In this document: one piece after another, positions 22,398 to 54,295 of the stretch
Layout of the letters: every line of letters begins with the position of its first letter
Numbering within the stretch: the first letter of the stretch is position 1
Virus record (IMG/VR): IMGVR_UViG_3300044988_000363
DNA length: 64,000 nucleotides
Reading direction: 5' to 3' (one strand)
From: a virus
The notes under the pieces: generated by a model
Database searches by the model: none
What the model was told of the DNA's origin: nothing
What the model saw: the letters and a program-made list of their open reading frames with translations, nothing else
Program-made: the position numbers and the translations under genes

Positions 22398-23420
22398 ATG
22401 GATTGGCTGGCTCACAAGTATATCGGTATTATTTCTACTCGTTTAGAAAAGTTTAAACGTAAGGGTCCAAACCTTTACAACTTCCGCTGTCCTGTATGCG
22501 GGGATTCCGAAAGTCATCAGAATAAAGCACGAGGATACATCTACCAGAAGGATGGCAAGATGTTGTTCCATTGTCACAACTGTAATGCTACAATGGGAAT
22601 TCCCAACTTTATTAAGATGCTTGATGTCAACTTATATAATGAGTATCAGTTAGAAAAGCTGGCTGATAAGAAAACGCCTGAGCAAGATGATTACGAAAAG
22701 TTCGTAGAGAAAATGCGGAAGCCAGTTTATATGACTTCCGGACCATTGAAAGGATTGAAGAAAGTATCTCAGCTTTCGCCATTTGATCCAATCAAAAAGT
22801 TTGTTGTGGAGAGAAAGATACCTAATGTATATCACGCCAAGTTATTTGCATGTCCTAATTTTAAGCATTTTACTAATAATTTGGTTCCCAACAAGTTTTC
22901 AGCTGAGTCTCTGGCTAAAGATGAGACAAGACTTCTTATCCCTTTTCTTGATAGTAATAAGACTGTTCATGCCTTCCAAGGGAGAACGTTGGGATCTTCA
23001 ACAGTTAAATATATTACAATTGTTCTTAATCAATCAATACCTAAACTTTATGGCTTGGACACTGTTGATCGTAACAGAATTATTCCTGTCCTTGAAGGTC
23101 CGATTGACAGTATGTTTGTTCCTAATAGCATTGCTACTGCTGGAGGTGATCTCGTTAGTGCAGTAACAGATTTCGATAAATCTAGGTTGACAATTGTGTA
23201 TGATAATGAGAAATATTCTAAAGAGACCGTTAAGAAAATGGAAAAGGCTATTCTTAATGGTTACTCTGTGTGTATTTGGCCCGATAATTTAGATCAAAAA
23301 GATATTAACGATATGGTTTTATCTGGTATGAGTTCTGAATTTATTGAACATATTATCAAAACTAACACCTATCGTGATTTACCGGCACAATTAAGGTTGA
23401 ATCAGTGGAAGAGAGTTTAG
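22398..23420 (+). CDS. 61: DNA primase (gp61-like)
   Basis: zinc ribbon CPVCGD...CHNC, TOPRIM EGPIDS, YDNE, KDIND. Confidence 0.95.
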
Positions 23421-23883
23421 ATTTCTTTGATGCTGAGATTTTTGCTTTATGTTCTTCGGACATAGGACCACGAGGGCCAGTTTTTACGCCTTTGTTCCAA
23501 GCAGGTCTTCCTTTCATTCGAAGCGAGTGAGCAGGATTTTTGCCTCTTCTAGAAGCGTATTTTTTAATACGATCTTCTATGCTATACGGACCATATGGAC
23601 CCACAGGACCGGATCTGACAGGCGGCATATCTCCTCCTTCAGTTTTATTATGGAGAACACCATTGTTTAAATCTTTTCTGCCATACCATCTGATATATCT
23701 GCGTTCTAATGCTAAGGCGCCAATTTCTGTTAAATTGCTCTCTAAGAATACAATTTTGGATTTGTCTTTTGGAACAGAAACACCATGTTGTTTGGAGAAA
23801 GCTCTTTTATCTTTTCCCTTACCAATGTAATATGGAGTATTATCTGATGATCTTAGGTAGGCGTATACGTAATAAATATTCAT
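23362..23883 (-). CDS. GIY-YIG homing-endonuclease-like protein with NUMOD3 motif
   Basis: YYVYAYLR...YYIGKG...R, AWNKG and [10 protein letters not shown]; start at MNIYYV after GAGGAG. Confidence 0.85.
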
Positions 23884-23950
23884 GCTGTCGCTCCTCTTTA
23901 GCGGTAGAGTAGGTAGAGACTGCAATCTCGTGACCTACGCTTTATTTATA
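23881..23950 (-). promoter_or_regulatory. repeated late-promoter/two-hairpin leader, copy 1
   Basis: TATAAATA-AAGCGTAGGTCAC-GAGA-TTGCAG-TCTC-TACCTACTCT-AC-CGCT-AAAGAGG-AGCG-ACAGC-ATG. Confidence 0.85.
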
Positions 23951-23981
23951 AAACTTGACTTTTAACAATGGAGAATATATA

Positions 23982-24239
23982 ATGAAAGTTCGTAAGAAGC
24001 CAGTTGATGTAGAAGCACATCAACTAACAGAGGATAATGCTGGAGTATTATCAGATTGGTGTGGTGGTTTACTTATTCTTCGTGATGATAATTTCGAACC
24101 AACAAAGATTAAAATTCTTACACTTGAAGGCATTATGACAGCACGTGTTGGAGATTATATTATTAAGGGAATTGCTGGTGAGTTTTATCCTTGCGCTCCT
24201 GCTATTTTTGATCAGACCTATGAGGTTATTGTACCATGA
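23982..24239 (+). CDS. conserved phage hypothetical protein
   Basis: RKKPVDVEA...TLEG...GEFYPC pattern; TTGACT-N17-TATAAT upstream. Confidence 0.75.
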   Translation: MKVRKKPVDVEAHQLTEDNAGVLSDWCGGLLILRDDNFEPTKIKILTLEGIMTARVGDYIIKGIAGEFYPCAPAIFDQTYEVIVP

Positions 24240-42142: not shown

Positions 42143-42788
42143 ATTATTTAAACACAATCTAGTTCCAGAAGTGGAAATAGATACGAAGAACATTGATGGC
42201 AAAAGATATTATGTGTTACCGAGTGGAGAGAAATTTCGCTCGGTAACAACCGTATTAGATGGAGCACTAGACAAAACAGCATTAATGGAGTGGAAGAAAC
42301 GTGTCGGAGAAGAAGAGGCTCAGAAGATTTCTACACAGGCTGCTCGTCGTGGAACCGCCGTACACTCAATCGCCGAGCGTTATGTCCTCAATGAAGAGGA
42401 CCATCTTCGGGGTGCTATGCCTTCTGGAATTGATGCTTTTAAAGGTATTCAAACGCTCTTAGACAAATACGTAGATAATATCCTAGGTATCGAACTCCCT
42501 CTCTATTCTACTGTTTTAAAAACAGCAGGTAGATGCGACTTGATCGCAGAGTTTGATGGCGTCCCTTCTATAGTTGATTTTAAAACAAGCCGTAAACTTA
42601 AAAAAGAAGAGTGGATCACCAGTTATTTTTTACAGACAGCTTGTTACGCTATGATGTTTTCTTGGATGTATAAAATAACAATTCCTCAAATAGTTGTGAT
42701 GATAGCAGTAGACCATGAAAGCCCACAGCTTTTTGTTAAAGATACAAAGGATTATGTAGAAGAAGTTCTAAGAATTTTCAGAACTTAA
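42132..42788 (+). CDS. PD-(D/E)xK exonuclease
   Basis: SVTTVL, RGTAVH, AGRCD, DFKTS, YFLQ..CYA. Confidence 0.85.
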   Translation: MSRKLFKHNLVPEVEIDTKNIDGKRYYVLPSGEKFRSVTTVLDGALDKTALMEWKKRVGEEEAQKISTQAARRGTAVHSIAERYVLNEEDHLRGAMPSGIDAFKGIQTLLDKYVDNILGIELPLYSTVLKTAGRCDLIAEFDGVPSIVDFKTSRKLKKEEWITSYFLQTACYAMMFSWMYKITIPQIVVMIAVDHESPQLFVKDTKDYVEEVLRIFRT

Positions 42789-43226
42789 TTTTTGTTCTCT
42801 TTTTAATCTACAAGTTTCTTTTATCTTAGCTTTACGTTCTTCCGTACAAGGTCTTCCTTTTAAAGCTATAGAAACTTTTTCTCCAACTTCTTTAGGTCTC
42901 TTTCTTCCTGAAAGAGTTTTAGATATCTTTTCTTTAACTGCTTCTTTTCTAGGAACGCCTTTTCTTTTTTTATTTGCGGCAATTATGTTTTCGAAACTTT
43001 TTTGTTTGCCATTTTTTATTCCATCAGAAATATTTTTTCTGTGTTGTTTTGTTTTTATTTTGCCTTTATTTGATTCAGAAATTAGTTTCTTGGTTTCTTC
43101 TGTGTGAGGAATACCGCTATTCCATCCAGAAGATATTTGAATAGTTTGCCAAGGTTCTAATGGAGGTATTTCATATTCTAATGGCGGAAGACCTAGTGCC
43201 TTCCCTATAGGGTCATAAATATCCAT
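42768..43226 (-). CDS. NUMOD3-repeat protein with no recognisable nuclease domain
   Basis: HTEETKKLIS, KQHRKNIS, EAVKEKIS, EVGEKVS, TEERKAKI repeats. Confidence 0.75.
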   Translation of the reverse strand: MDIYDPIGKALGLPPLEYEIPPLEPWQTIQISSGWNSGIPHTEETKKLISESNKGKIKTKQHRKNISDGIKNGKQKSFENIIAANKKRKGVPRKEAVKEKISKTLSGRKRPKEVGEKVSIALKGRPCTEERKAKIKETCRLKREQKLSSENS

Positions 43227-43292
43227 GCTGGACCTCCGTGTAAGGTTTAGAGTAGGTAGGGATTGCCTTCCCGTGACCTACACTTATTTATA
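43224..43292 (-). promoter_or_regulatory. repeated late-promoter/two-hairpin leader, copy 2
   Basis: TATAAATA-AGTGTAGGTCAC-GGGA-AGGCAA-TCCC-TACCTACTCT-AA-ACCT-TACACGG-AGGT-CCAGC-ATG. Confidence 0.85.
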
Positions 43293-43304
43293 CAACAAAA
43301 GTCT

Positions 43305-44226: not shown

Positions 44227-44301
44227 TGGAGCGGGCGACCAGATTCGAACTGGCGACCAACAGTTTGGAAGACTGTGACTCTACCCCTGAGTTACACCCG
44301 C
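44227..44301 (-). tRNA. tRNA-Gly(UCC)
   Basis: cloverleaf, CCA. Confidence 0.9.
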
Positions 44302-44423
44302 ATTAACCAAATGTATATAGGTCTTGTAATACAAAACCAGCGACAATCATCAATAAAAAGAAACAAACGATCTTGATAATTGCCGAAATTTTATGTTGTT
44401 CTTCAGTCATAATACATCCTTTT

Positions 44424-44498
44424 TGGCTCGGGATCATGGACTCGAACCACGAATGTCGGAGTCAGAATCCGAAGTTTTACCAATTAAACTAATCCCGA
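44424..44498 (-). tRNA. tRNA-Gln(CUG)
   Basis: cloverleaf, CCA. Confidence 0.9.
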
Positions 44499-44499
44499 A

Positions 44500-44575
44500 T
44501 GGTGCTGGCAGCAGGAGTCGAACCCACGACCTTCTCATTACAAGTGAGTTGCTCTACCGTCTGAGCTATGCCAGC
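44500..44575 (-). tRNA. tRNA-Thr(UGU)
   Basis: cloverleaf, CCA. Confidence 0.9.
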
Positions 44576-44576
44576 A

Positions 44577-44990
44577 TTAGTAAGCAGGAACCATACAACT
44601 CTGAACCAGATCTGCTCCACCGAATAGCTGGCCAAACAAATCATAAGGATCAACATACATTGCACAGTTTCCAGAAGTTGCCACAGGAACATTAGTTGGA
44701 TATCCCGGAGGCGAATAGATGTTAGAAGCTTCTGGTGTTGGTACTGAATTATAAACAGGAACCAACGGTGCAGGTTGAACAGGAACTACTACTGGAACCA
44801 TAACTGTAGAGCTAATAGGACCAGGACCAGCAGGAACATACTCAACTGCAACAGGAACCTGAACAGTCTTTACAACTTTCTTTACTGGCTGCTGGTATGT
44901 AATCTTACAGTTATTACATACACTAATATTATCCTGCGCATAAGCAGGAACAGCCAATACAATCCCTAGAGCAACTAGAAACTTTCTCAT
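44577..44990 (-). CDS. secreted Pro/Val-rich hypothetical protein
   Basis: signal peptide ending AYA. Confidence 0.6.
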   Translation of the reverse strand: MRKFLVALGIVLAVPAYAQDNISVCNNCKITYQQPVKKVVKTVQVPVAVEYVPAGPGPISSTVMVPVVVPVQPAPLVPVYNSVPTPEASNIYSPPGYPTNVPVATSGNCAMYVDPYDLFGQLFGGADLVQSCMVPAY

Positions 44991-44992
44991 TG

Positions 44993-45277
44993 TTACCACC
45001 CGTAGTAATAACCATTCCCAGGATAATAGTAATATGGCGAATTAGCGTATGGATAACGAGGACCATAGTAATATGGATAAGGATTATATCCATAACCCTG
45101 CGAAGCAATTGCGCCGCCGATTACTCCTCCGAGAATAGCAGCACCAGCCATGGCACCATAAGCTGCGCCATAACCACCGTAACCATATCCACCGTAGTAT
45201 CCACCACGATACCAAGCATTAGCCGGAGTCGTAATAACGCTACCGAGGATAACTAAAGCAGCAACAATCTTCTTCAT
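44993..45277 (-). CDS. secreted Gly/Tyr-rich protein
   Basis: signal peptide ending ANA, glycine-zipper GAAILGGVIGGAIA. Confidence 0.65.
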   Translation of the reverse strand: MKKIVAALVILGSVITTPANAWYRGGYYGGYGYGGYGAAYGAMAGAAILGGVIGGAIASQGYGYNPYPYYYGPRYPYANSPYYYYPGNGYYYGW

Positions 45278-45342
45278 AGCTTTTCTCCATAAAGCGAACT
45301 GACCGTGGGTCCGCACGAGTCTATTTAGCGACCAACCTATAA

Positions 45343-45418
45343 TGGCTCCCGAGGAAGGGCTCGAACCTCCGACAAAGTCGTTAACAGCGACCTACTCTAC
45401 CAACTGAGTTACACGGGA
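45343..45418 (-). tRNA. tRNA-Asn(GUU)
   Basis: cloverleaf, CCA. Confidence 0.9.
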
Positions 45419-45486
45419 ATAATTCTTATATTCTTAGTATACCTTATTTAGTCAGAAAGTCAAATTCTTTTTTGACTGAGAGAGAA

Positions 45487-46224
45487 TTAACTGAAGGGAC
45501 ATTTCGATTCTCTTTTTTGATTTCTCTTATCAAGCTGGACGAATTTTCTCCACCCATAAAAACTTGTTTGAGAATGGAAAGACATTTTCTTCCACTCGTA
45601 TTCCGAAACCAAATGTTGTCTAATCTTTACCTTCTTTTCTGACAAAGGCACCATAATAGCCAAAGGAAGACCAATCGGAATGATAAATTCTGATGTGTAA
45701 TTCGGAATCATCATATTTATGTGAGTCGAAGAGTTTAACTTATAATCAACGACTCCAGGAAGAACTCTAAAATAGAAATCTTCTAAATTCCATTCAGCGC
45801 CAAGAAAAACAAACTTAACACCTGTCTTTTCTTTAAAAAACCATGGGCTAGTTAATTTCAAATGAAAATAATTTTTAAACCCTTCACCATATAATTGCTT
45901 ATCATGAATATCACAACCAGTGTCAAACGAAGCCCAAGTATCCATTCTGTTGTTAGCAATTTTAATAATTCTATCAGACCAGTTTTCTAGAACAATTCCT
46001 CGTTTATAAAGTTCAAGGAAACCAGAACATGTCTTCATATTTGCATTATTAAATGCTCTGTTGTTTACAATCCTATAGGGATTTCCCTCTGGCTTCCTAA
46101 GATTGTCCCACCATTCTGGTGTCGCTTTATAAGCATGAACAATAGGAGTTACCTCAAAAATCATACGATGCGCTGTGAAACAATCTATTGTTATCTCTGG
46201 ACTTCTTTTGAAGAATGAAAACAT
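45487..46224 (-). CDS. hypothetical protein inside tRNA array
   Basis: MKTCSG, KLTSPW, LPGVVDY, C-terminal KCPF. Confidence 0.7.
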   Translation of the reverse strand: MFSFFKRSPEITIDCFTAHRMIFEVTPIVHAYKATPEWWDNLRKPEGNPYRIVNNRAFNNANMKTCSGFLELYKRGIVLENWSDRIIKIANNRMDTWASFDTGCDIHDKQLYGEGFKNYFHLKLTSPWFFKEKTGVKFVFLGAEWNLEDFYFRVLPGVVDYKLNSSTHINMMIPNYTSEFIIPIGLPLAIMVPLSEKKVKIRQHLVSEYEWKKMSFHSQTSFYGWRKFVQLDKRNQKRESKCPFS

Positions 46225-46240
46225 AATATATTCTTTCTTT

Positions 46241-46314
46241 TGGTACTGGCACCAGGTATCGATCCTAGTCTACAAGATCCACAATCTCGTGTGCTACCTT
46301 TACACTATGCCAGC
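46241..46314 (-). tRNA. tRNA-His(GUG), no G-1, A73
   Basis: loop TTGTGGA; base -1 is T, discriminator A. Confidence 0.85.
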
Positions 46315-46317
46315 ATA

Positions 46318-46391
46318 TGGATCGGGGTCAGGGACTCGAACCCCGACATGCAGATTCAAAGTCTGCGGTTCTACCATTAAACTAACCCCGA
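46318..46391 (-). tRNA. tRNA-Gln(UUG)
   Basis: cloverleaf, CCA. Confidence 0.9.
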
Positions 46392-46398
46392 ACAATTT

Positions 46399-46490
46399 TG
46401 GTGCGTAGGGATGGATTCGAACCACCAATGTTACCGCAAAGGGAACGGATTTACAGTCCGTCGCAACACCACCGTCGTTGCCGCCTACGC
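46399..46490 (-). tRNA. tRNA-Tyr(GUA)
   Basis: long variable arm, CCA. Confidence 0.85.
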
Positions 46491-46495
46491 ATGTT

Positions 46496-46572
46496 TGGAG
46501 TCCCAGGAAGGATTCAAACCCTCAACCTTCGGTTCCGTAGACCGATGCTCTATTCAGTTGAGCTACTGAGAC
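46496..46572 (-). tRNA. tRNA-Arg(ACG)
   Basis: cloverleaf, CCA. Confidence 0.9.
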
Positions 46573-46573
46573 A

Positions 46574-46650
46574 TGGTGCCCTTGGTCAGATTCGAACTGA
46601 CACTTTGTTGATTTTGAGTCAACTGCCTCTGCCGATTGGGCTACAAGGGC
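46574..46650 (-). tRNA. tRNA-Leu(CAA), short variable loop
   Basis: 77 nt, 5-nt variable loop. Confidence 0.85.
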
Positions 46651-46807
46651 TTTTCTTGAACAATAATCAAAACTGGATAGCATGTTCTTTTAACAAGATA
46701 AATGCCAGGTTTCCAGTTAATAGGATTGTTGTTTTTTATTCTTACTGGTATTTCGCAATAAAAATCAACTCGTTTTGTGGATCCTATAATACCACCTACA
46801 TGTTTCA

Positions 46808-46883
46808 TGGTGCTTCCCCCTAGAATTAAACTAGATCCTCTCGTTCTTCAGACGAGCGTGCGCATCAGCTACACCAGAGAAGC
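46808..46883 (-). tRNA. tRNA-Phe(GAA), atypical T-loop
   Basis: loop CTGAAGA, T-loop TTTAATT. Confidence 0.75.
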
Positions 46884-46889
46884 ATTATA

Positions 46890-46985
46890 TGGTAGGCCAG
46901 GTAGGATTCGAACCTACTCGTTGTCTTTCATCCGGATTCATGGACAACAGCGTCTCGCCACGTCTTCCTATTCCGTCACTGACCT
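46890..46985 (-). ncRNA. tRNA-like RNA lacking a canonical anticodon arm
   Basis: intact acceptor stem, D-arm, T-arm and ACCA; anticodon arm reduced to GCG-AGA-CGC, extra GTTGTC/GACAAC arm. Confidence 0.7.
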
Positions 46986-46989
46986 ATAT

Positions 46990-47066
46990 TGGTGCCCCTG
47001 GTAAGATTCGAACTTACAACCTCCTGATTCTAAGTCAGGCATCTCTTCCAGTTGGACTACAGAGGC
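46990..47066 (-). tRNA. tRNA-Leu(UAG), short variable loop
   Basis: 77 nt, 5-nt variable loop. Confidence 0.85.
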
Positions 47067-47070
47067 ATAT

Positions 47071-47145
47071 TGGTACGGGATGACAGGGTTGAACTGCCGA
47101 CCTTCGCCGTGTAAAAGCGTTGCTCTACCACTGAGCTAATCCCGC
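47071..47145 (-). tRNA. tRNA-Val(UAC)
   Basis: loop TTTACAC, CCA. Confidence 0.85.
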
Positions 47146-47236
47146 ATATTATCTATCACCTAAATTCAAAAGGAATGCTAAGATTCCTATTGATATCCAT
47201 AACACAACGAGTAACTTTAACATACTCTGTCCTAAT

Positions 47237-47314
47237 TGGTCGGGGTAGCAGGATTCGAACCTGCGACCTACTGGTTCCAAACCAGCCACGCTAACCAGAC
47301 TGCGCTACACCCCG
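47237..47314 (-). tRNA. tRNA-Pro(UGG)
   Basis: cloverleaf, CCA. Confidence 0.9.
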
Positions 47315-47321
47315 AATATAT

Positions 47322-47397
47322 TGGATGCGAAGCGTTGGAATTGCACCAACTTCTACTGGTTTATGAGACCAGCGAGATACTATACCTCCCGCCCGCA
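47322..47397 (-). tRNA. tRNA-Met(CAU), atypical
   Basis: loop CTCATAA; T-loop TGCAATT, irregular acceptor stem. Confidence 0.65.
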
Positions 47398-47404
47398 AAA
47401 CTCT

Positions 47405-47479
47405 TGGTGCTGATAGTTGGAATCAAACCAACCTGAAACGCCTTATGAGAGCGCCTCGACATCTTGCCGACCTATCAGC
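47405..47479 (-). tRNA. tRNA-Met(CAU), atypical D-arm
   Basis: loop CTCATAA, CCA. Confidence 0.7.
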
Positions 47480-47483
47480 GAAA

Positions 47484-47557
47484 TGGCACCAGTGGAAGGA
47501 GTCGAACCCTCGCCTGCTGTTTTGGAGACAGCCGTGCTACCGTAACACTTCACTGAT
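47484..47557 (-). tRNA. tRNA-Trp(CCA)
   Basis: cloverleaf, CCA. Confidence 0.88.
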
Positions 47558-47559
47558 AA

Positions 47560-47649
47560 TGGCGGAGTGGTGGCGGAATCGAACCCCTGGCCTTTCGGCT
47601 CTACTGGTTTTCAAGACCAGACTAGTATCCCCGACTAGATACGCACTCC
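47560..47649 (-). tRNA. tRNA-Ser(UGA)
   Basis: long variable arm, G73. Confidence 0.85.
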
Positions 47650-47664
47650 ATTTTTATTTAAACT

Positions 47665-47740
47665 TGGTGGACCAGAGAGGAATCGAACCCCCGACCCTCT
47701 GAATGCAAATCAGATGCTCTCCCAACTGAGCTACTGGCCC
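47665..47740 (-). tRNA. tRNA-Ala(UGC)
   Basis: G3:U70, CCA. Confidence 0.92.
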
Positions 47741-47798
47741 GAAACGTATTCTATTTAGTAATATTACCGCATTTTAACAGACAAGTCAACAACTTTTT

Positions 47799-47889
47799 TG
47801 GCGGAGAGTGAGAGATTCGAACTCTCGGTAGACTTTCGCCCACGCTTCGTTAGCAGTGAAGTGCCTTAGACCAACTCGGCCAACTCTCC
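47799..47889 (-). tRNA. tRNA-Ser(GCU)
   Basis: long variable arm, G73. Confidence 0.9.
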
Positions 47890-47893
47890 AATT

Positions 47894-47985
47894 TGGTAGG
47901 CATGGTGGGACTCGAACCCACTGAAGAACACCCATCTGATGCTAAAGGCTTTATAAGAGCCTCCCCGCTACCCAGCGTCACGCCC
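47894..47985 (-). tRNA. tRNA with UAU anticodon (nominally Ile) and long variable arm
   Basis: AGGCT-CTTATAA-AGCCT, 24-nt variable region, ACCA. Confidence 0.7.
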
Positions 47986-48033
47986 AAACTTTGTAAACTT
48001 ATAAATACTAAGCAGCAGATGATTGAGGATACA

Positions 48034-48666
48034 ATGAAAGCATATACTTACACTATTACCCACATTTCTACTGGTAATATTTATTACGGAGTAAGAAAAT
48101 CGTCCATCGAAGATATTGGAGTGGACTACTTTTCTTCCTCTAAACTTATCAATCGCCTCATACAAGAGGATGGTATTGAAAACTTTTCATTTAAAGTTAG
48201 AAGAAAGTTCGATACATACGAAGATGCTCGTAAACACGAAACCAAGTTTCTTCAGAGAGTGAAAGCAGTATCTAATCCTAGGTTCTATAACCAAGCCATT
48301 TCTTCTCCGAGAGTGTGCAAGAAAGACTCACATTCAGAAGAAAAAAGAAAACAATCTATTTCAGAAACTATGAAACTGCTGTGGCAGTCAGAAGACTACA
48401 GAAATAGACAAAAATTCAACAAACTCTCTAAAGAAGAAAGATCTAAGAGAGGAAGAAAAGGCGGTCTTGCAACTGCTAAGACCAGAACCAAGAAACCCAA
48501 AAACAAACCTACTTACAGTGAAATCTTGATCGTCAAAGACGGTAAGACCAAAACAGTAAAAAGAAACCAAGTCCCAGCATACAGAAAGTATGGTTGGGAA
48601 AGGGCGAATGGCGACCCGTACGGGGATCGAACCCGTTATCTCTGGCGTGACAGGCCAGCGTCTTAA
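48034..48666 (+). CDS. Seg-like GIY-YIG homing endonuclease, antisense within tRNA array
   Basis: AYTYTITH...YYGVR, YFSSS, FYN; TATAAATA at 48000; start after GAGGA. Confidence 0.8.
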   Translation: MKAYTYTITHISTGNIYYGVRKSSIEDIGVDYFSSSKLINRLIQEDGIENFSFKVRRKFDTYEDARKHETKFLQRVKAVSNPRFYNQAISSPRVCKKDSHSEEKRKQSISETMKLLWQSEDYRNRQKFNKLSKEERSKRGRKGGLATAKTRTKKPKNKPTYSEILIVKDGKTKTVKRNQVPAYRKYGWERANGDPYGDRTRYLWRDRPAS

Positions 48667-48685
48667 CCAATTCGACTTACGAGCC
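48609..48685 (-). tRNA. tRNA-Asp(GUC)
   Basis: cloverleaf, G73, CCA. Confidence 0.88.
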
Positions 48686-48693
48686 ATTATAGC

Positions 48694-48831
48694 TTTCGGG
48701 CAGACGAGGACACACATTCGTCTCTTCTCTCACATTTGTTACAGCGCCGTGAATTAGCCGTATATACTTGCACCATATATCCGGTCCTATCATTTAGAAC
48801 GATAGGTATATGGCTACGTATGCACCCGAAA
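48694..48831 (-). ncRNA. candidate structured RNA between tRNA-Lys and tRNA-Asp
   Basis: TTTCGGG/CCCGAAA closure, TAGCC/GGCTA, CCTATC/GATAGG, AGACGA/TCGTCT. Confidence 0.55.
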
Positions 48832-48833
48832 CT

Positions 48834-48909
48834 TGGAGGATCCTCAGGGACTCGAACCCTGAACCTTGAGATTAAAAGTCTCTTGCTCTACCTATTGAGC
48901 TAAGGATCC
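48834..48909 (-). tRNA. tRNA-Lys(UUU)
   Basis: cloverleaf, CCA. Confidence 0.9.
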
Positions 48910-48916
48910 ATTATAT

Positions 48917-48994
48917 TGGTAGGGCGGATGGGACTCGAACCCACATTGCACAGATTGAAAGTCTGTTTTCCTAGGCCAATTAGAAGACCGCCCC
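48917..48994 (-). tRNA. tRNA-Glu(UUC)
   Basis: cloverleaf, CCA. Confidence 0.88.
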
Positions 48995-49050
48995 GTAACT
49001 TACACACTTAATATACCCTGAAAGAAAGTCAAAGTCAACTTCTTTCTGAA

Positions 49051-49126
49051 TGGTAGACCGAGAGGGGATCGAACCCACGACAAAGGGATTAAGAGTCCCC
49101 TGCTCTACCAACTGAGCTATCGGTCC
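49051..49126 (-). tRNA. tRNA-Lys(CUU)
   Basis: cloverleaf, CCA. Confidence 0.9.
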
Positions 49127-49132
49127 ATAAAC

Positions 49133-49208
49133 TGGTGCTGTAGGAGAGATTCGAACTCCCGACCTACTGATTACTAATCAGTTGCTCTACCAACTGAGCT
49201 ACTACAGC
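49133..49208 (-). tRNA. tRNA-Thr(AGU)
   Basis: ACTGA-TTAGTAA-TCAGT anticodon arm, otherwise canonical. Confidence 0.88.
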
Positions 49209-49209
49209 A

Positions 49210-49285
49210 TGGTTGTCCCTGCTGGCTCCGACCCAGCGACCCCAGTCTTATCAGGACTGTGCTCTACCAACTGAGCTAAGGGACA
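49210..49285 (-). tRNA. tRNA-Ile(GAU)
   Basis: loop CTGATAA; atypical T-loop. Confidence 0.85.
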
Positions 49286-49287
49286 TC

Positions 49288-49422
49288 AATTCTTAGAAAG
49301 ATACAGGTTTACTATGTCACTCATTCTGATGGTTGCAATCCAGAGCAGAACCTATTTGCGACACAAGGTTTGGGCTTTTTTACGGATCCTCGCCCGCACG
49401 AGCCTGTACCTATCTAAGAATT
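49288..49422 (-). ncRNA. candidate structured RNA between tRNA-Cys and tRNA-Ile
   Basis: ~20-bp closing stem AATTCTTAGA-TAGGTACAGG / CCTGTATCT-T-TCTAAGAATT with internal stems. Confidence 0.6.
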
Positions 49423-49501
49423 GGAGGGAGTGATGGGACTCGAACCCACATATTTTAGGTTTTGCAGACCTTGCCGTAACCAATTCCGGACACACACTCC
49501 C
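49422..49501 (-). tRNA. tRNA-Cys(GCA)
   Basis: loop CTGCAAA, U73, CCA. Confidence 0.85.
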
Positions 49502-51625: not shown

Positions 51626-52080
51626 TTGACTCCACCTTTATTATTTTTATTTTTTATAAGTTCAATTTGTTGTGGCGTAAGAATCTTTAATGCTTCTTTA
51701 GTGCGCACAATATTGTATTTATAATAATTAGAAACCAAGGTTTGGAGTTCTTCTTTCTTCTTACGGTCAGCCTTTTCTTTATCAGTTTCTTTAACGCCTC
51801 TCATCTTTCTTTTTCTTATAGAATTATAAAGATAATCATAATGCATTTGATCTGTCACACCATAGTGACAATTCATTTCATTAGCATAAAGAATTGTTTC
51901 TCTATAGTTTGATAAAACGCTATTAGTTCTCCATTGGCTATACTCTGAATCAACGTCAACCTCTTTACCAGAAGTTATTGAGTTTTCAAATCTCCAGTCA
52001 TACCTTGGTTTCTGTATTTTAATTTCTTGTTCAGGCTCTTTTCTTTCCTGTAACGTAACGTCTAAAAACTTAGCCATCAC
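51622..52080 (-). CDS. 62: clamp loader small subunit (gp62-like)
   Basis: ANEMN, HYDYLYNSIRKRK; position between gp44 and regA. Confidence 0.85.
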   Translation of the reverse strand: MMAKFLDVTLQERKEPEQEIKIQKPRYDWRFENSITSGKEVDVDSEYSQWRTNSVLSNYRETILYANEMNCHYGVTDQMHYDYLYNSIRKRKMRGVKETDKEKADRKKKEELQTLVSNYYKYNIVRTKEALKILTPQQIELIKNKNNKGGVK

Positions 52081-53030
52081 ACAAACTCACATTCAATCAT
52101 AACTTGAACTAGAAATGCCATAAAATTAATTTCAGGATTTGCAGCAAAAGCATTCTGGTATTGATATTTTGCTAGCTGTAGAACCAACACTGGTGCTGTT
52201 TGCTTAGTGCAAATATCAGACGAAATTTCATAGAACTGATTATAAAGATAATTAACATCCGTATCTAGATTATTTTTTACCCACTTACGGATTTCAGTAT
52301 AATTCTGTTCCTTCATCAACTTAACAAGATCCTTGATAGAAGTCTCTGTCATATTTGCTAGAATGCCAGAGTCAATCTTACCAGTCGCTGAATAACGCTG
52401 AAGCTCGTTAAGGACTCGCCGCCAATCTGGGAAGTGCTTATTGATTACTTCAGCAACAACAGCCTTATCAAACTCAATGCTTTCTGATTCAAGAATAAAT
52501 GTAACTCTCTTGAAGAACTGCGTAGCAAGCTTGGCCATAGCCTTCTTGCTAATTTTAAAATCAATTACCGAGCATCTTGAATGCAAAGGTTCAATGATAC
52601 GGTTCTTGAAGTTGCACGTAAGAATGAACCCGCAGTTTCTTGAGAACTCTTCCATAAAATTGCGAAGTGCGGGTTGAGTAGAATTGGCATTAAGATAATC
52701 CGCTTCGTCAAGGATGACATATTTCCTGCCACCGGAAAGTGATACGGATGACGCAAAGTTGAGTATTTCGTTACGAAGTGTGTCGATATTTCCATTCATA
52801 GATCCATTAATGACGATATAATCACAACCAAGCTGTTCTAGCATAGCACGTGCTACGGTCGTCTTACCGACACCTGCTGTTCCTGCTAGGATTAAATTAG
52901 GGATATTCTTTTGATCAACAAACTGTTGGAATGTTGCCTTCAAATCACAAGGAAGAATAGTTTCTTCAATAGTCTTAGGTCTGTATTTTTCAGTCCAGAT
53001 AAAATGTTCATCCATGTCAAAATTCTCCAT
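52077..53030 (-). CDS. 44: clamp loader large subunit (gp44-like)
   Basis: WTEKYRP, GTAGVGKTT, LDEAD, SRC. Confidence 0.95.
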   Translation of the reverse strand: MENFDMDEHFIWTEKYRPKTIEETILPCDLKATFQQFVDQKNIPNLILAGTAGVGKTTVARAMLEQLGCDYIVINGSMNGNIDTLRNEILNFASSVSLSGGRKYVILDEADYLNANSTQPALRNFMEEFSRNCGFILTCNFKNRIIEPLHSRCSVIDFKISKKAMAKLATQFFKRVTFILESESIEFDKAVVAEVINKHFPDWRRVLNELQRYSATGKIDSGILANMTETSIKDLVKLMKEQNYTEIRKWVKNNLDTDVNYLYNQFYEISSDICTKQTAPVLVLQLAKYQYQNAFAANPEINFMAFLVQVMIECEFV

Positions 53031-53032
53031 TA

Positions 53033-53103
53033 TATAAATAAGCGTAGGTCACGGAGTCCCCACTCCTACCTACTCTAACGCTAATTAGGAGCGCCAGCAT
53101 ATG
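53033..53103 (+). promoter_or_regulatory. repeated late-promoter/two-hairpin leader, copy 3
   Basis: TATAAATA-AGCGTAGGTCAC-GGAG-TCCCCA-CTCC-TACCTACTCT-AA-CGCT-AATTAGG-AGCG-CCAGCAT-ATG. Confidence 0.85.
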
Positions 53104-53652
53104 ATTATATATAAAATCACCAACCTTATCAATGGCAAAATTTACGTAGGTAAAACTACAAAAACCGCCAAAGAAAGATTTAAACGCCATTTCTACAACC
53201 ATAAAACTGGTAACACCTACCTCTATAAATCTATGCGAAAACATGGGTTCGATAATTTCAACATAGAAATAATAGAAAAAACTGAAAACTTGAACGAAAG
53301 AGAATCGTTTTGGATATCAGAATTATCGCCCGAATATAATATGACCTCCGGAGGAGATGGAGGAGATACTTCTCAATCCCCAAATTATATTACTGCAATA
53401 AAACAAAGAGATATATCAGGTCAAAAAAATCCAATGTTTGGAAAGAAAAGAACAGATACTGCAATCTATCTCGTTGCTGCCAGAGAAAAAATGATTCAAG
53501 CAAATAAATGTCCAGTCATTTGCGAAGGTATCGAATATGATTCAGTAGGCAAAGCCCAAGAAGCATATCCTGGAATATCTATACGCAAAAGACTGGACAA
53601 CCCAAAATATCCTAATTTCTATCGCCTAAGAGAAAAAACTATCAAAAGGTAG
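53101..53652 (+). CDS. GIY-YIG homing-endonuclease-like protein
   Basis: IIYKITNLINGKIYVGKT...RFKRH, YNMTSGG, KNPMFGKK. Confidence 0.88.
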   Translation: MIIYKITNLINGKIYVGKTTKTAKERFKRHFYNHKTGNTYLYKSMRKHGFDNFNIEIIEKTENLNERESFWISELSPEYNMTSGGDGGDTSQSPNYITAIKQRDISGQKNPMFGKKRTDTAIYLVAAREKMIQANKCPVICEGIEYDSVGKAQEAYPGISIRKRLDNPKYPNFYRLREKTIKR

Positions 53653-54295
53653 AACTTGATTCCACGGCAATATAATATTCTACATCATCATGAACAAAAT
53701 GGGAGATACCTTTTGATGAAATATTAACATCATAATCACCCGGAATGATCTTAATATTCTCAGCCTTAAAGATTGCCTTGAATGCCTTATCAGTATCACC
53801 AATCTGAACAGAATAGATGTCGCCAGAAGGATTCTTAGAATCAGCAGCCTGTAGATAAAGGTTCTTACCATCACCCATAACAACAATCTCAGGAAGAGCA
53901 AGAATGCCTGCTGCCTTCTCAACATCCTTGAGATTATCATTAGTCAAACGAAAAGTAACATCAACCGAAGGAAGATTGATTTCTCTTTCCGGAGCCTTTG
54001 TTACCGTGCTTTCGTCAGCATACACATAATGAGTCTTACGATTATTGTCAGAAATGTCAACAGACTTATCTCCAAACTTAAAATCTGGATCAGTGAAAGT
54101 GCTAACGATCGAAATGAAACGATCGAGATTATAGATTGCAAATCGTCTATCAAAGTCGGTCTTAACCTTTGCCTTTGCCATGATTGTCTTGGTTGGCGAA
54201 ATGGTCTTAAGAACATTGCCTTCCTGAACAACAATGGATGGATTGATCTTCGCAAAGTTCTTCAAAACATTAACTGTATCTGTATCAATCTTCAT
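53642..54295 (-). CDS. 45: sliding clamp (gp45-like)
   Basis: VLKNFAKINPSI, FAIYNL; synteny 45-44-62-regA. Confidence 0.92.
   Translation of the reverse strand: MKIDTDTVNVLKNFAKINPSIVVQEGNVLKTISPTKTIMAKAKVKTDFDRRFAIYNLDRFISIVSTFTDPDFKFGDKSVDISDNNRKTHYVYADESTVTKAPEREINLPSVDVTFRLTNDNLKDVEKAAGILALPEIVVMGDGKNLYLQAADSKNPSGDIYSVQIGDTDKAFKAIFKAENIKIIPGDYDVNISSKGISHFVHDDVEYYIAVESSSTF

Follow-up and report, generated by a model that had tools for sequence, protein, structure and literature searches.

A portable two-strand cassette with a candidate antisense RNA in front of homing endonuclease genes of uncultured T4-like phages

In large lytic phages, the main selfish elements are homing endonucleases. 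To our knowledge, the control that keeps these enzymes harmless has been worked out for only a few T-even genes, each with an mRNA hairpin of its own. Ribosome-binding sites sequestered by hairpins with an embedded late promoter have been described for I-TevI, I-TevII, I-TevIII, segB, and mobE of Aeh1 (PMC2988022; PMC3014915). A review of T4 mobile elements reports that inserted endonuclease genes can embed promoters for their neighbors or create antisense transcripts, and describes no shared antisense element (PMC2988022).

Other described systems are related to parts of the present one. CfrI of cyanophage S-PM2 is a ~225-nt antisense RNA across psbA and an endonuclease gene, which was found experimentally and whose function is unknown (PMC2984593). 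PeSLs are composite promoter-terminator cassettes of T4-type phages (PMC2839356, PMC4122927); they consist of an early (sigma-70) promoter and a simple stem-loop on one strand and flank genes of hyperplastic regions (PMC4122927). Outside phages, the transposase of IS10/Tn10 is under antisense control by the RNA-OUT/RNA-IN pair (PMC5006887).

In this study, we describe a cassette that would be a variant of two kinds of control already known, i.e., antisense control of a mobile element's nuclease and leader control of an endonuclease. As in the T-even genes, a late promoter lies directly upstream of a homing endonuclease gene, RNA structure surrounds the Shine-Dalgarno sequence, and the presumed aim is to limit or delay translation of the nuclease. 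In the T-even genes, however, the promoter is inside the mRNA hairpin and late transcripts escape, whereas in the cassette the promoter precedes both hairpins, and the fold under selection is that of the opposite strand. The T-even hairpins are also gene-specific, whereas the cassette is one family on hundreds of unrelated genes. Like CfrI, the predicted RNA of the cassette is an antisense RNA of a T4-like phage that overlaps a homing endonuclease gene, but CfrI is known from a single locus, whereas the predicted RNA is ~60 nt long, confined to the 5' leader, and part of a multi-copy covarying family. PeSLs resemble the cassette as small, conserved, repeated regulatory units of promoter and stem-loop that are tied to gene gain and loss; unlike them, the cassette has late-type boxes on both strands, contains a pair of covarying hairpins as well as the first codons of the ORF, and is restricted to homing endonuclease genes.

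The DNA analyzed here (the window) is a stretch of 64,000 nucleotides from the IMG/VR virus record IMGVR_UViG_3300044988_000363, and it comes from a novel T4-like phage. Genes for gp62, gp44 and gp45 are located at 51.6-54.3 kb of the window, and an Rfam scan gave 25 tRNA matches, with a cluster of 23 at 44.2-49.5 kb. Among cultured phages, Stenotrophomonas phage DLP6 has the nearest gp44 (62% identity), and a megablast search with the gp44-gp45 region against 50,697 cultured phage records returned no match.

A sequence-only reading of the window had reported one element of ~70 nt in three copies, each in front of a different gene. These copies are present as described, and chance predicts none: the pattern GTAGGTCAC-N10-22-TACCTACTCT has exactly three matches in the window, at 23906-23938 (-), 43249-43281 (-) and 53044-53076 (+), and none in 100 shuffles. 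With filters off, the covariance model likewise hit only these three copies in the whole window, at 87-92 bits, and the next best hit had 18 bits. The repeat is real, but its true length is 87-89 nt: the conserved unit occupies 23867-23954, 43210-43296 and 53029-53117 and takes in the ATG and codons 2-4 (nnT-ATT-TAT). In all three copies, a T4-type late promoter, TATAAATA, is located 60-68 nt before the ATG, and 3-4 nt separate it from the first stem, which lies downstream. Each of the three endonuclease ORFs overlaps a convergent neighbor gene at the 3' end of the latter. The covariation reported for the two stems was likewise seen in the three copies, both in stem a (GAGA/TCTC, GGGA/TCCC and GGAG/CTCC) and in stem b (CGCT/AGCG twice and ACCT/AGGT once). 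Stem b is really a helix of 7-9 bp that extends from CTA to CAG, and its full pairing is found on the opposite strand only. Below, the hairpins containing stems a and b are designated 1 and 2 on the gene strand and 1' and 2' on the opposite strand.

Copy 3 (53029-53117; fold orientation -, gene on +; covariance-model hit of 86.8 bits) precedes a gene for a GIY-YIG + NUMOD3 homing endonuclease (53101-53652, +), which is inverted between gp45 (53642-54295, -) and gp44 (52077-53030, -). The late-promoter box TATAAATA is at 53033-53040 on the gene strand (+), and its complement, UAUUUAUA, is the U-rich tail after hairpin 1' on the - strand. Hairpin 1/1' (53044-53073, -) has the outer stem GTAGGT/ACCTAC, an internal loop of 3 nt versus 1 nt, and the inner stem GGAG/CTCC. 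Hairpin 2' (53075-53097, -) is an 8-bp helix, CUGGCGCU/AGCGUUAG, with two G.U pairs, and its loop carries the complement of the gene's GGAG Shine-Dalgarno (53088-53091). Codons 2-4 of this copy contain TATATA in place of TAAATA on the opposite strand, and a sigma-70-like promoter, TTGATA-17-TATAAT (53104-53132, -, opposite to the gene), matches at 11 of 12 positions and ends at the complement of the ATG.

Copy 2 (43210-43296; fold orientation +, gene on -; 92 bits) is located at the junction of + and - gene blocks, in front of a gene for a NUMOD3-only protein of 152 aa with no nuclease domain (42768-43226, -). Read on the + strand, it starts with the late-promoter core ATAAATA (43215-43221, opposite to the gene), which is the complement of the third base of codon 2 and of ATT TAT. 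Five bases including CAT, and a G, lead to hairpin 2' (43228-43250, +; CUGGACCU/AGGUUUAG), in which CUGG...UUAG contains two G.U pairs and the loop is the complement of the gene's GGAG. A single A separates it from hairpin 1' (43252-43281, +), which is composed of a 6-bp outer stem, an internal loop of 1 nt versus 3 nt, and a 4-bp inner stem (GGGA/TCCC). ACU-UAUUUAUA follows, the complement of the gene's late promoter, whose box TATAAATA is at 43285-43292 on the gene strand (-).

Copy 1 (23867-23954; fold orientation +, gene on -; 88.5 bits) is, like copy 3, associated with an inverted gene. This gene encodes a GIY-YIG-motif endonuclease of 173 aa (23362-23883, -; PHROG homing endonuclease) and is located after the primase gene (22398-23420, +), between it and a gene for a 94-aa protein (23955-24239, +). 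The box TATAAATA is at 23943-23950 on the gene strand (-), hairpin 1/1' at 23909-23938 (+) with the inner stem GAGA/TCTC, and hairpin 2' at 23885-23907 (+), where CUGUCGCU/AGCGGUAG contains one G.U and one U.G pair. The ATAAATA core of this copy (23872-23878, +, opposite to the gene) is inside codons 2-4 (AAT ATT TAT).

The cassette is a real, widespread, undescribed structured element of uncultured T4-like phages, where hundreds of unrelated homing endonuclease genes share it. The contigs that carry it are from IMG samples of freshwater type. An exact-pattern scan of IMG/VR identified at least 114 loci with the GTAGGT-type core. GTAGGT/ACCTAC is invariant in the window, as the sequence-only reading had stated, but not in the family, in which a large subfamily has GTCCGT/ACGGAC; a scan for this outer stem gave more than 110 loci, with about half of the unique matches listed being true members. 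Nearly all members have a common layout: a TAAATA-type box 3-5 nt upstream, hairpin 1, TCTA, hairpin 2, CAGC, ATG and nnT-ATT-TAT. The inner stem of hairpin 1 varies freely yet stays paired, hairpin 2 surrounds the Shine-Dalgarno sequence, and in diverged copies the outer stem has changed in a compensatory manner (GTAGAT/ATCTAC, GTATGT/ACATAC, GTAGTC/GACTAC, GTCCGT/ACGGAC and GTAGGC/GCCTAC).

We also searched for the cassette among known elements. A scan of the window against Rfam 15 at gathering thresholds detected only tRNAs and no family matching the cassette, and an E-value scan of positions 53000-53150 gave one chance match (E=2.8), in agreement with the earlier view that the element is undescribed. 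In the three nearest cultured relatives, which are Stenotrophomonas phage DLP6, Methylophilales phage Melnitz and Synechococcus phage S-H38, the covariance model had no hit at E<=1. The leader gave no blastn match among the 50,697 cultured phage records, a weak result because the query is too short for BLAST statistics. No description of the cassette was found in literature searches, which covered subscription papers in part.

The cargo of the cassette is always a homing endonuclease-type gene; several GIY-YIG subtypes, HNH enzymes, NUMOD3-only proteins and others are encoded by the downstream ORFs. Pfam analysis of 73 downstream proteins detected NUMOD3 in 23, GIY-YIG in 20 and HNH in 6. The proposal of a portable cassette that swaps its cargo is borne out by this tabulation, in which the same element is fused to unrelated GIY-YIG, HNH and NUMOD3-only genes. 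The three window proteins all match homing-endonuclease PHROGs and are dissimilar, as had been noted: one has GIY-YIG and NUMOD3, one has a GIY-YIG motif, and one has NUMOD3 only. The protein with the GIY-YIG motif has PHROG homing-endonuclease hits only.

The cargo proteins also provided information on where the cassette ends. HNH proteins behind it begin with MxIYHxHHIxPK, and several GIY-YIG proteins have an extra peptide, MxIY or MSSIY, that precedes a complete GIY motif of their own. In more than 90% of 85 aligned copies, codon 2 has T as its third base, whatever the amino acid, and this base and the following ATT TAT are conserved at the nucleotide level independently of the cargo. Judged by this pattern, the first codons are part of the cassette and not of the cargo, and the conserved unit thus extends from the promoter box through codon 4, i.e., over the 87-89 nt given above.

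To analyze the fold, we used a covariance model in the opposite-strand orientation that was built from 16 seeds; 97 hits were aligned, which gave 93 distinct rows. Of the 1653 pair cells in these 93 copies, standard pairs make up 99.5% on the opposite strand versus 90.3% on the gene strand. Covariation in this larger alignment is strong, with compensatory changes on both sides in 15 of the 18 pairs; none of 500 shuffles reached the observed pairing, and no slid register came close. There are 152 G.U cells on the opposite strand versus 0 on the gene strand (60 versus 0 without one invariant pair), each of them being an A.C mismatch on the gene strand. In computed folding, the opposite-strand RNA was more stable in 89 of 89 unique copies, with means of -18.6 versus -13.8 kcal/mol. 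The 93-row alignment was fitted to the model; a walk outward from the invariant CTA...CAG in 85 unique copies, which was model-free and not fitted, agrees with it, giving a helix of 7-9 bp in which the gene strand has A.C at 127 non-Watson-Crick positions, where the opposite strand has G.U, and G.T at only 3.

The conserved RNA fold sits on the strand opposite the endonuclease gene. The compensatory changes and the G.U asymmetry indicate selection on RNA and not only on DNA. Hairpin 1 is strand-neutral, and hairpin 2 of the gene strand has 4-5 bp flanked by A.C mismatches; the mRNA does not contain a very stable hairpin that sequesters the Shine-Dalgarno sequence. The fold had been assigned in the sequence-only reading to the leader of the endonuclease mRNA, an assignment that the 152 versus 0 G.U cells contradict, the conserved fold being primarily on the other strand. 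Nothing points to the ligand-binding site that was suggested there as well.

The opposite strand also contains promoter-like and terminator-like sequences. The loop of hairpin 2' is complementary to the gene's Shine-Dalgarno sequence by construction, and the stem-loop is conserved and stable. Codons 2-4 (nnT ATT TAT) read as the late-promoter core TAAATA on the opposite strand; this core occurs in 60 of 94 copies, where the hairpin mostly follows after 6 nt, and TATATA replaces it in 27 copies (~29%). Transcription from T4 late promoters usually starts ~6 nt after the TATAAATA box. By analogy with this spacing, a late transcript of the opposite strand would begin at the G of GCUG, and one of the gene strand would have its first base 2-3 nt inside hairpin 1. 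Hairpin 1' was missed by a simple terminator scan on account of its interrupted stem, which has an internal loop; 3 nt separate the stem from the U-rich tail. We therefore describe it as terminator-like and not as a terminator. The outer stem and the GUG/CAC bulge are near-invariant in sequence, and a protein partner of these parts is possible.

These features could be combined in a portable two-strand cassette, a reading that we hold with slightly better than even confidence and that rests on sequence comparison. On the gene strand, the cassette would provide the late promoter TATAAATA and a leader of ~60 nt, together with the Shine-Dalgarno sequence and the opening codons, ATG included (M-x-I-Y). 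On the opposite strand, the late-promoter-like (A)TAAATA in codons 2-4, or the sigma-70-like substitute in one subfamily and in window copy 3, would direct synthesis of an antisense RNA of ~60 nt starting at or just before GCUG. The predicted RNA would fold into hairpin 2', with an 8-bp stem that includes G.U pairs and a loop exactly complementary to the gene's Shine-Dalgarno sequence, then into hairpin 1', and would end in the U-rich tail that is the complement of the gene's late promoter. We infer that such an RNA is produced, that it ends at this tail, and that translation is repressed by it: once paired with the endonuclease leader, the RNA would keep ribosomes from binding, in the manner of RNA-OUT on RNA-IN in IS10. 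Hairpin 1' and the tail may in addition stop or attenuate transcription of the opposite strand, replacing the displaced intergenic terminator. The A.C mismatches of the gene strand would leave the Shine-Dalgarno hairpin of the mRNA weak and the antisense hairpin strong. Any endonuclease ORF recombined behind the cassette would then be expressed late, throttled in translation, and insulated from the host operon. The two-strand reading gives no account of the near-invariant sequence of the outer stem and bulge.

IS10 RNA-OUT would be the closest analogue of the cassette in working mode, without homology. In both systems, the nuclease or transposase gene of the mobile element has within its 5' end a promoter of the opposite strand (here, promoter-like boxes), and a short stem-loop antisense RNA of ~60-70 nt (here, a predicted one) is the complement of the region where translation starts; the proposed effect is that ribosomes are kept from binding. 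Unlike RNA-OUT, to which it has no sequence or Rfam relationship, the cassette has phage late-type boxes, two hairpins, and the anti-Shine-Dalgarno sequence in a loop, and on the other strand its terminator-like tail is at the same time the promoter of the gene itself. Its cargo is a homing endonuclease in a lytic phage, and its RNA is a predicted one.

Several other readings need to be weighed against the two-strand cassette. The strand data bear most directly on a cis-regulatory leader of the gene strand, in which hairpin 1 stabilizes the late mRNA or binds a protein and hairpin 2 partly masks the Shine-Dalgarno sequence. Hairpin 1 can fold on either strand, hairpin 2 has the Shine-Dalgarno sequence in its loop and 3' arm, the bulge and the outer stem are invariant and resemble a protein site, and hairpins at ribosome-binding sites are a known mode of control of T-even endonuclease genes (PMC2988022). 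We nevertheless regard such a leader as quite improbable, given the 152 A.C mismatch cells and zero G.U cells of gene-strand hairpin 2, its variable helix positions 4 and 5, which are only Watson-Crick or opposite-strand wobble pairs, and the weaker gene-strand fold in every one of the 89 copies; the start of the late transcript expected inside hairpin 1 and the conservation of nnT-ATT-TAT before HNH cargo also speak against it. A mask similar to that of I-TevI would involve long-range pairing: in read-through transcripts, UAUAAAUA would pair with UAUUUAU of codons 2-4 and close a three-way junction that hides the start, and late transcripts, without the 5' arm, would be translated. This logic matches known T-even cases (PMC2988022), and the two 7-8-mers that flank the whole element are exact complements in most copies. 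However, this sole long-range helix consists of 7 A-U pairs only and closes a multiloop, ~29% of copies (TATATAT) are internally mismatched in it with no compensating promoter change, one copy with TATAAGTA is likewise uncompensated, inverted insertions have no upstream same-strand transcription to mask, and the opposite-strand G.U pattern is left unexplained. We consider this mask very unlikely, and the sequence-only reading was right that the I-TevI mechanism does not fit hairpins that are both downstream of the promoter. A DNA-level recombination module kept for cargo swapping without an RNA function has a precedent in the PeSLs of T4-type phages (PMC4122927), and could draw on the many unrelated cargo genes, the vestigial MxIY peptide sometimes left behind, and the presence/absence polymorphism at one site. 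Yet the stems vary freely while 99.5% of pairs are kept, and strand-specific wobbles are the signature of a single-stranded fold and not of duplex homology; the invariant blocks, of only 9-11 nt, are too short for homologous exchange. A purely DNA-level role is therefore hardly credible.

The main rival holds that the module is a terminator or insulator only, the fold being the 3' end or an attenuator of neighbor-gene transcripts antisense to the endonuclease, with no dedicated antisense RNA. Genomic context provides evidence on both sides. The gp45-gp44 gap is <=90 nt in about half of the 80 closest gp44 loci, and 7 of 7 short gaps read have a canonical GC hairpin and T-run directly before the gp44 Shine-Dalgarno sequence; the cassette is upstream of gp44 in only 4 of the 80. 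In the window, this gap is 626 nt and is made up of the inverted endonuclease gene and the cassette, with hairpin 1' and UAUUUAUA exactly in the position of the native terminator of empty sites. The comparison of filled and empty sites thus indicates that the unit is mobile or polymorphic and replaces the displaced terminator. Among ~82 copies with resolved context, the endonuclease gene is inverted between two genes of one direction in 45 and located at a convergent junction in 8 more, and all three window modules point in the same way as the gene convergent with the endonuclease. In inverted copies, the fold is already part of ordinary read-through transcripts of the operon, which makes a dedicated small RNA unnecessary there. 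The terminator reading fits these insertions, as well as the solo modules described below, which lack an endonuclease. It does not fit the 27 copies in which the endonuclease is co-directional with both neighbors, so that no operon read-through can supply an antisense RNA: the fold, the G.U asymmetry and the stability difference persist in this class. The antisense TAAATA is best preserved there, being intact in 25 of 27 copies, compared with 29 of 45 inverted copies and 7 of 8 at convergent junctions (co-directional versus inverted, Fisher p=0.01, uncorrected for relatedness). Such a pattern would be expected if the box were a working promoter that is most needed without operon read-through. 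Moreover, termination needs neither hairpin 2' nor conservation of codons 2-4 at the nucleotide level, and solo modules are rare compared with hundreds of endonuclease-linked copies. Altogether, we judge a terminator-only role to be rather unlikely.

A scan for solo forms without an endonuclease detected 7 loci of the GTCCGT type and none of the GTAGGT type. These modules belong to one lineage and one site, upstream of gp44, and have neither the ATG nor the gene-strand promoter; they keep both hairpins with all pairs Watson-Crick, have no anti-Shine-Dalgarno loop, and have gained a clean U6-8 tract before the gp44 Shine-Dalgarno sequence. They show that the module can serve on the operon strand by itself. 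Since hairpin 2' is kept without the anti-Shine-Dalgarno loop, it may serve some function other than pairing with the endonuclease mRNA. The solo modules also suggest that G.U pairs are kept in endonuclease copies because the A.C mismatches on the gene strand weaken the Shine-Dalgarno hairpin of the mRNA while the opposite hairpin stays strong. An origin of the two-hairpin module as a common native terminator invaded by endonucleases was considered and rejected as a general explanation, solo modules being limited to these 7 loci. As for the alternative proposal of the sequence-only reading, that the element is the conserved end of a mobile cassette, the presence and absence of the unit at gp45/gp44 among relatives are in its favor, and the selection at the RNA level is against an end conserved as DNA only.

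For the biology of these elements, it is significant that the data point to one regulatory module common to hundreds of unrelated endonuclease genes; its covariation is unusually clean and its strand signal is clear. We see about an even chance that the cassette defines a large undescribed family of cis-antisense RNAs, in a plug-in unit whose convergent late promoters each double as an element of the other strand, with an anti-Shine-Dalgarno hairpin and a terminator. If so, this would be a new RNA family in phage biology, the first general antisense-RNA control system for homing endonucleases, and, after IS10, the second example of a mobile nuclease throttled by RNA from inside its own 5' end. 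It would explain how essential operons such as gp45-gp44 tolerate the insertion of endonuclease genes, which is often inverted. The cassette would also represent a compact natural part that combines a bidirectional late promoter, a terminator and a translational throttle, and could serve as a sequence tag for free-standing endonuclease genes in metagenomes.

Variation in the family extends to the opposite-strand promoter and to copy number. In 17 copies, the MSSIY subfamily, the opposite strand contains TTGACA-N16-18-TAnnnT, with one perfect TTGACA-17-TATAAT; here, TTGACA is the complement of ATG TCA A, and TAnnnT is located in an enlarged hairpin 2' loop. As with IS10 RNA-OUT, the presence of several copies per genome could permit action in trans. 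Near-complete phage genomes (98-100%, CheckV) contain 1, 4 and 8 copies of the cassette, and an 82%-complete contig contains 4.

The gp45/gp44 junction, where copy 3 of the cassette (the repeated element that heads homing endonuclease genes) is inserted in the window, is empty in a number of IMG/VR loci, among them L118, L122, L127, L133, L135, L137 and L146. These seven empty sites carry a canonical terminator, a GC-rich hairpin followed by a T-run, located 10-25 nt 5' of the gp44 start; therefore, gp44 must be expressed in these phages by read-through of the terminator. In some close relatives (L117:2222-2500, L119, L120 and L125), the gap is filled by an unrelated small, co-oriented ORF of ~75-85 aa with CxxC...CxxC spacing, which stands in place of an endonuclease gene.

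A further arrangement was found in only seven IMG/VR loci of a single lineage (L235:5290-5370, L255, L270, L273, L279, L316 and L322), in which a solo module, without an endonuclease, lies immediately 5' of gp44. It consists of two hairpins, both entirely Watson-Crick; a clean U6-8 tract comes next, and after it the gp44 Shine-Dalgarno (SD). In these seven loci, the hairpins lack the anti-SD loop (the complement of the endonuclease gene's GGAG SD), and the other strand has neither a TAAATA box, the late-promoter core, nor an ATG. Separately, L057:741-828 is a cassette copy at the gp44 site where the bases directly after CAG no longer start an ORF (no ATG); it looks as if the endonuclease was deleted and the cassette left in place.

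In the window, the gp44 ORF at its annotated length begins at an ATG (53030) that is overlapped by GGAG. This GGAG is more likely the SD of the next ATG, 15 nt downstream (53015; MDEHF...), and the cassette ends 2-3 nt from this SD.

Each of the three endonuclease ORFs in the window faces a convergent gene and overlaps its 3' end, by 59 nt for primase (23362-23420), 21 nt for exonuclease (42768-42788) and 11 nt for gp45 (53642-53652); neither a spacer nor a terminator separates any of the three pairs. The second of these ORFs encodes a 152-aa NUMOD3-only protein (42768-43226, minus strand), which has no nuclease domain, yet its cassette is retained with a high score (92 bits); the alternatives for this protein are a decayed endonuclease and a DNA-binding derivative.

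Sigma-70-like promoter elements occur opposite the gene in a subfamily of 17 copies whose proteins start with MSSIY (including L049, L077, L085, L090, L060 and L021). Here, the -35 hexamer TTGACA is the complement of ATG-TCA-A, and the -10 TAnnnT is inside an enlarged loop of hairpin 2', the cassette hairpin that bears the anti-SD loop. Window copy 3 has TTGATA-17-TATAAT at 53104-53132, on the minus strand, opposite the gene. Finally, of the 25 tRNA matches that an Rfam scan of the window gave, 23 are clustered on the minus strand at 44230-49499.
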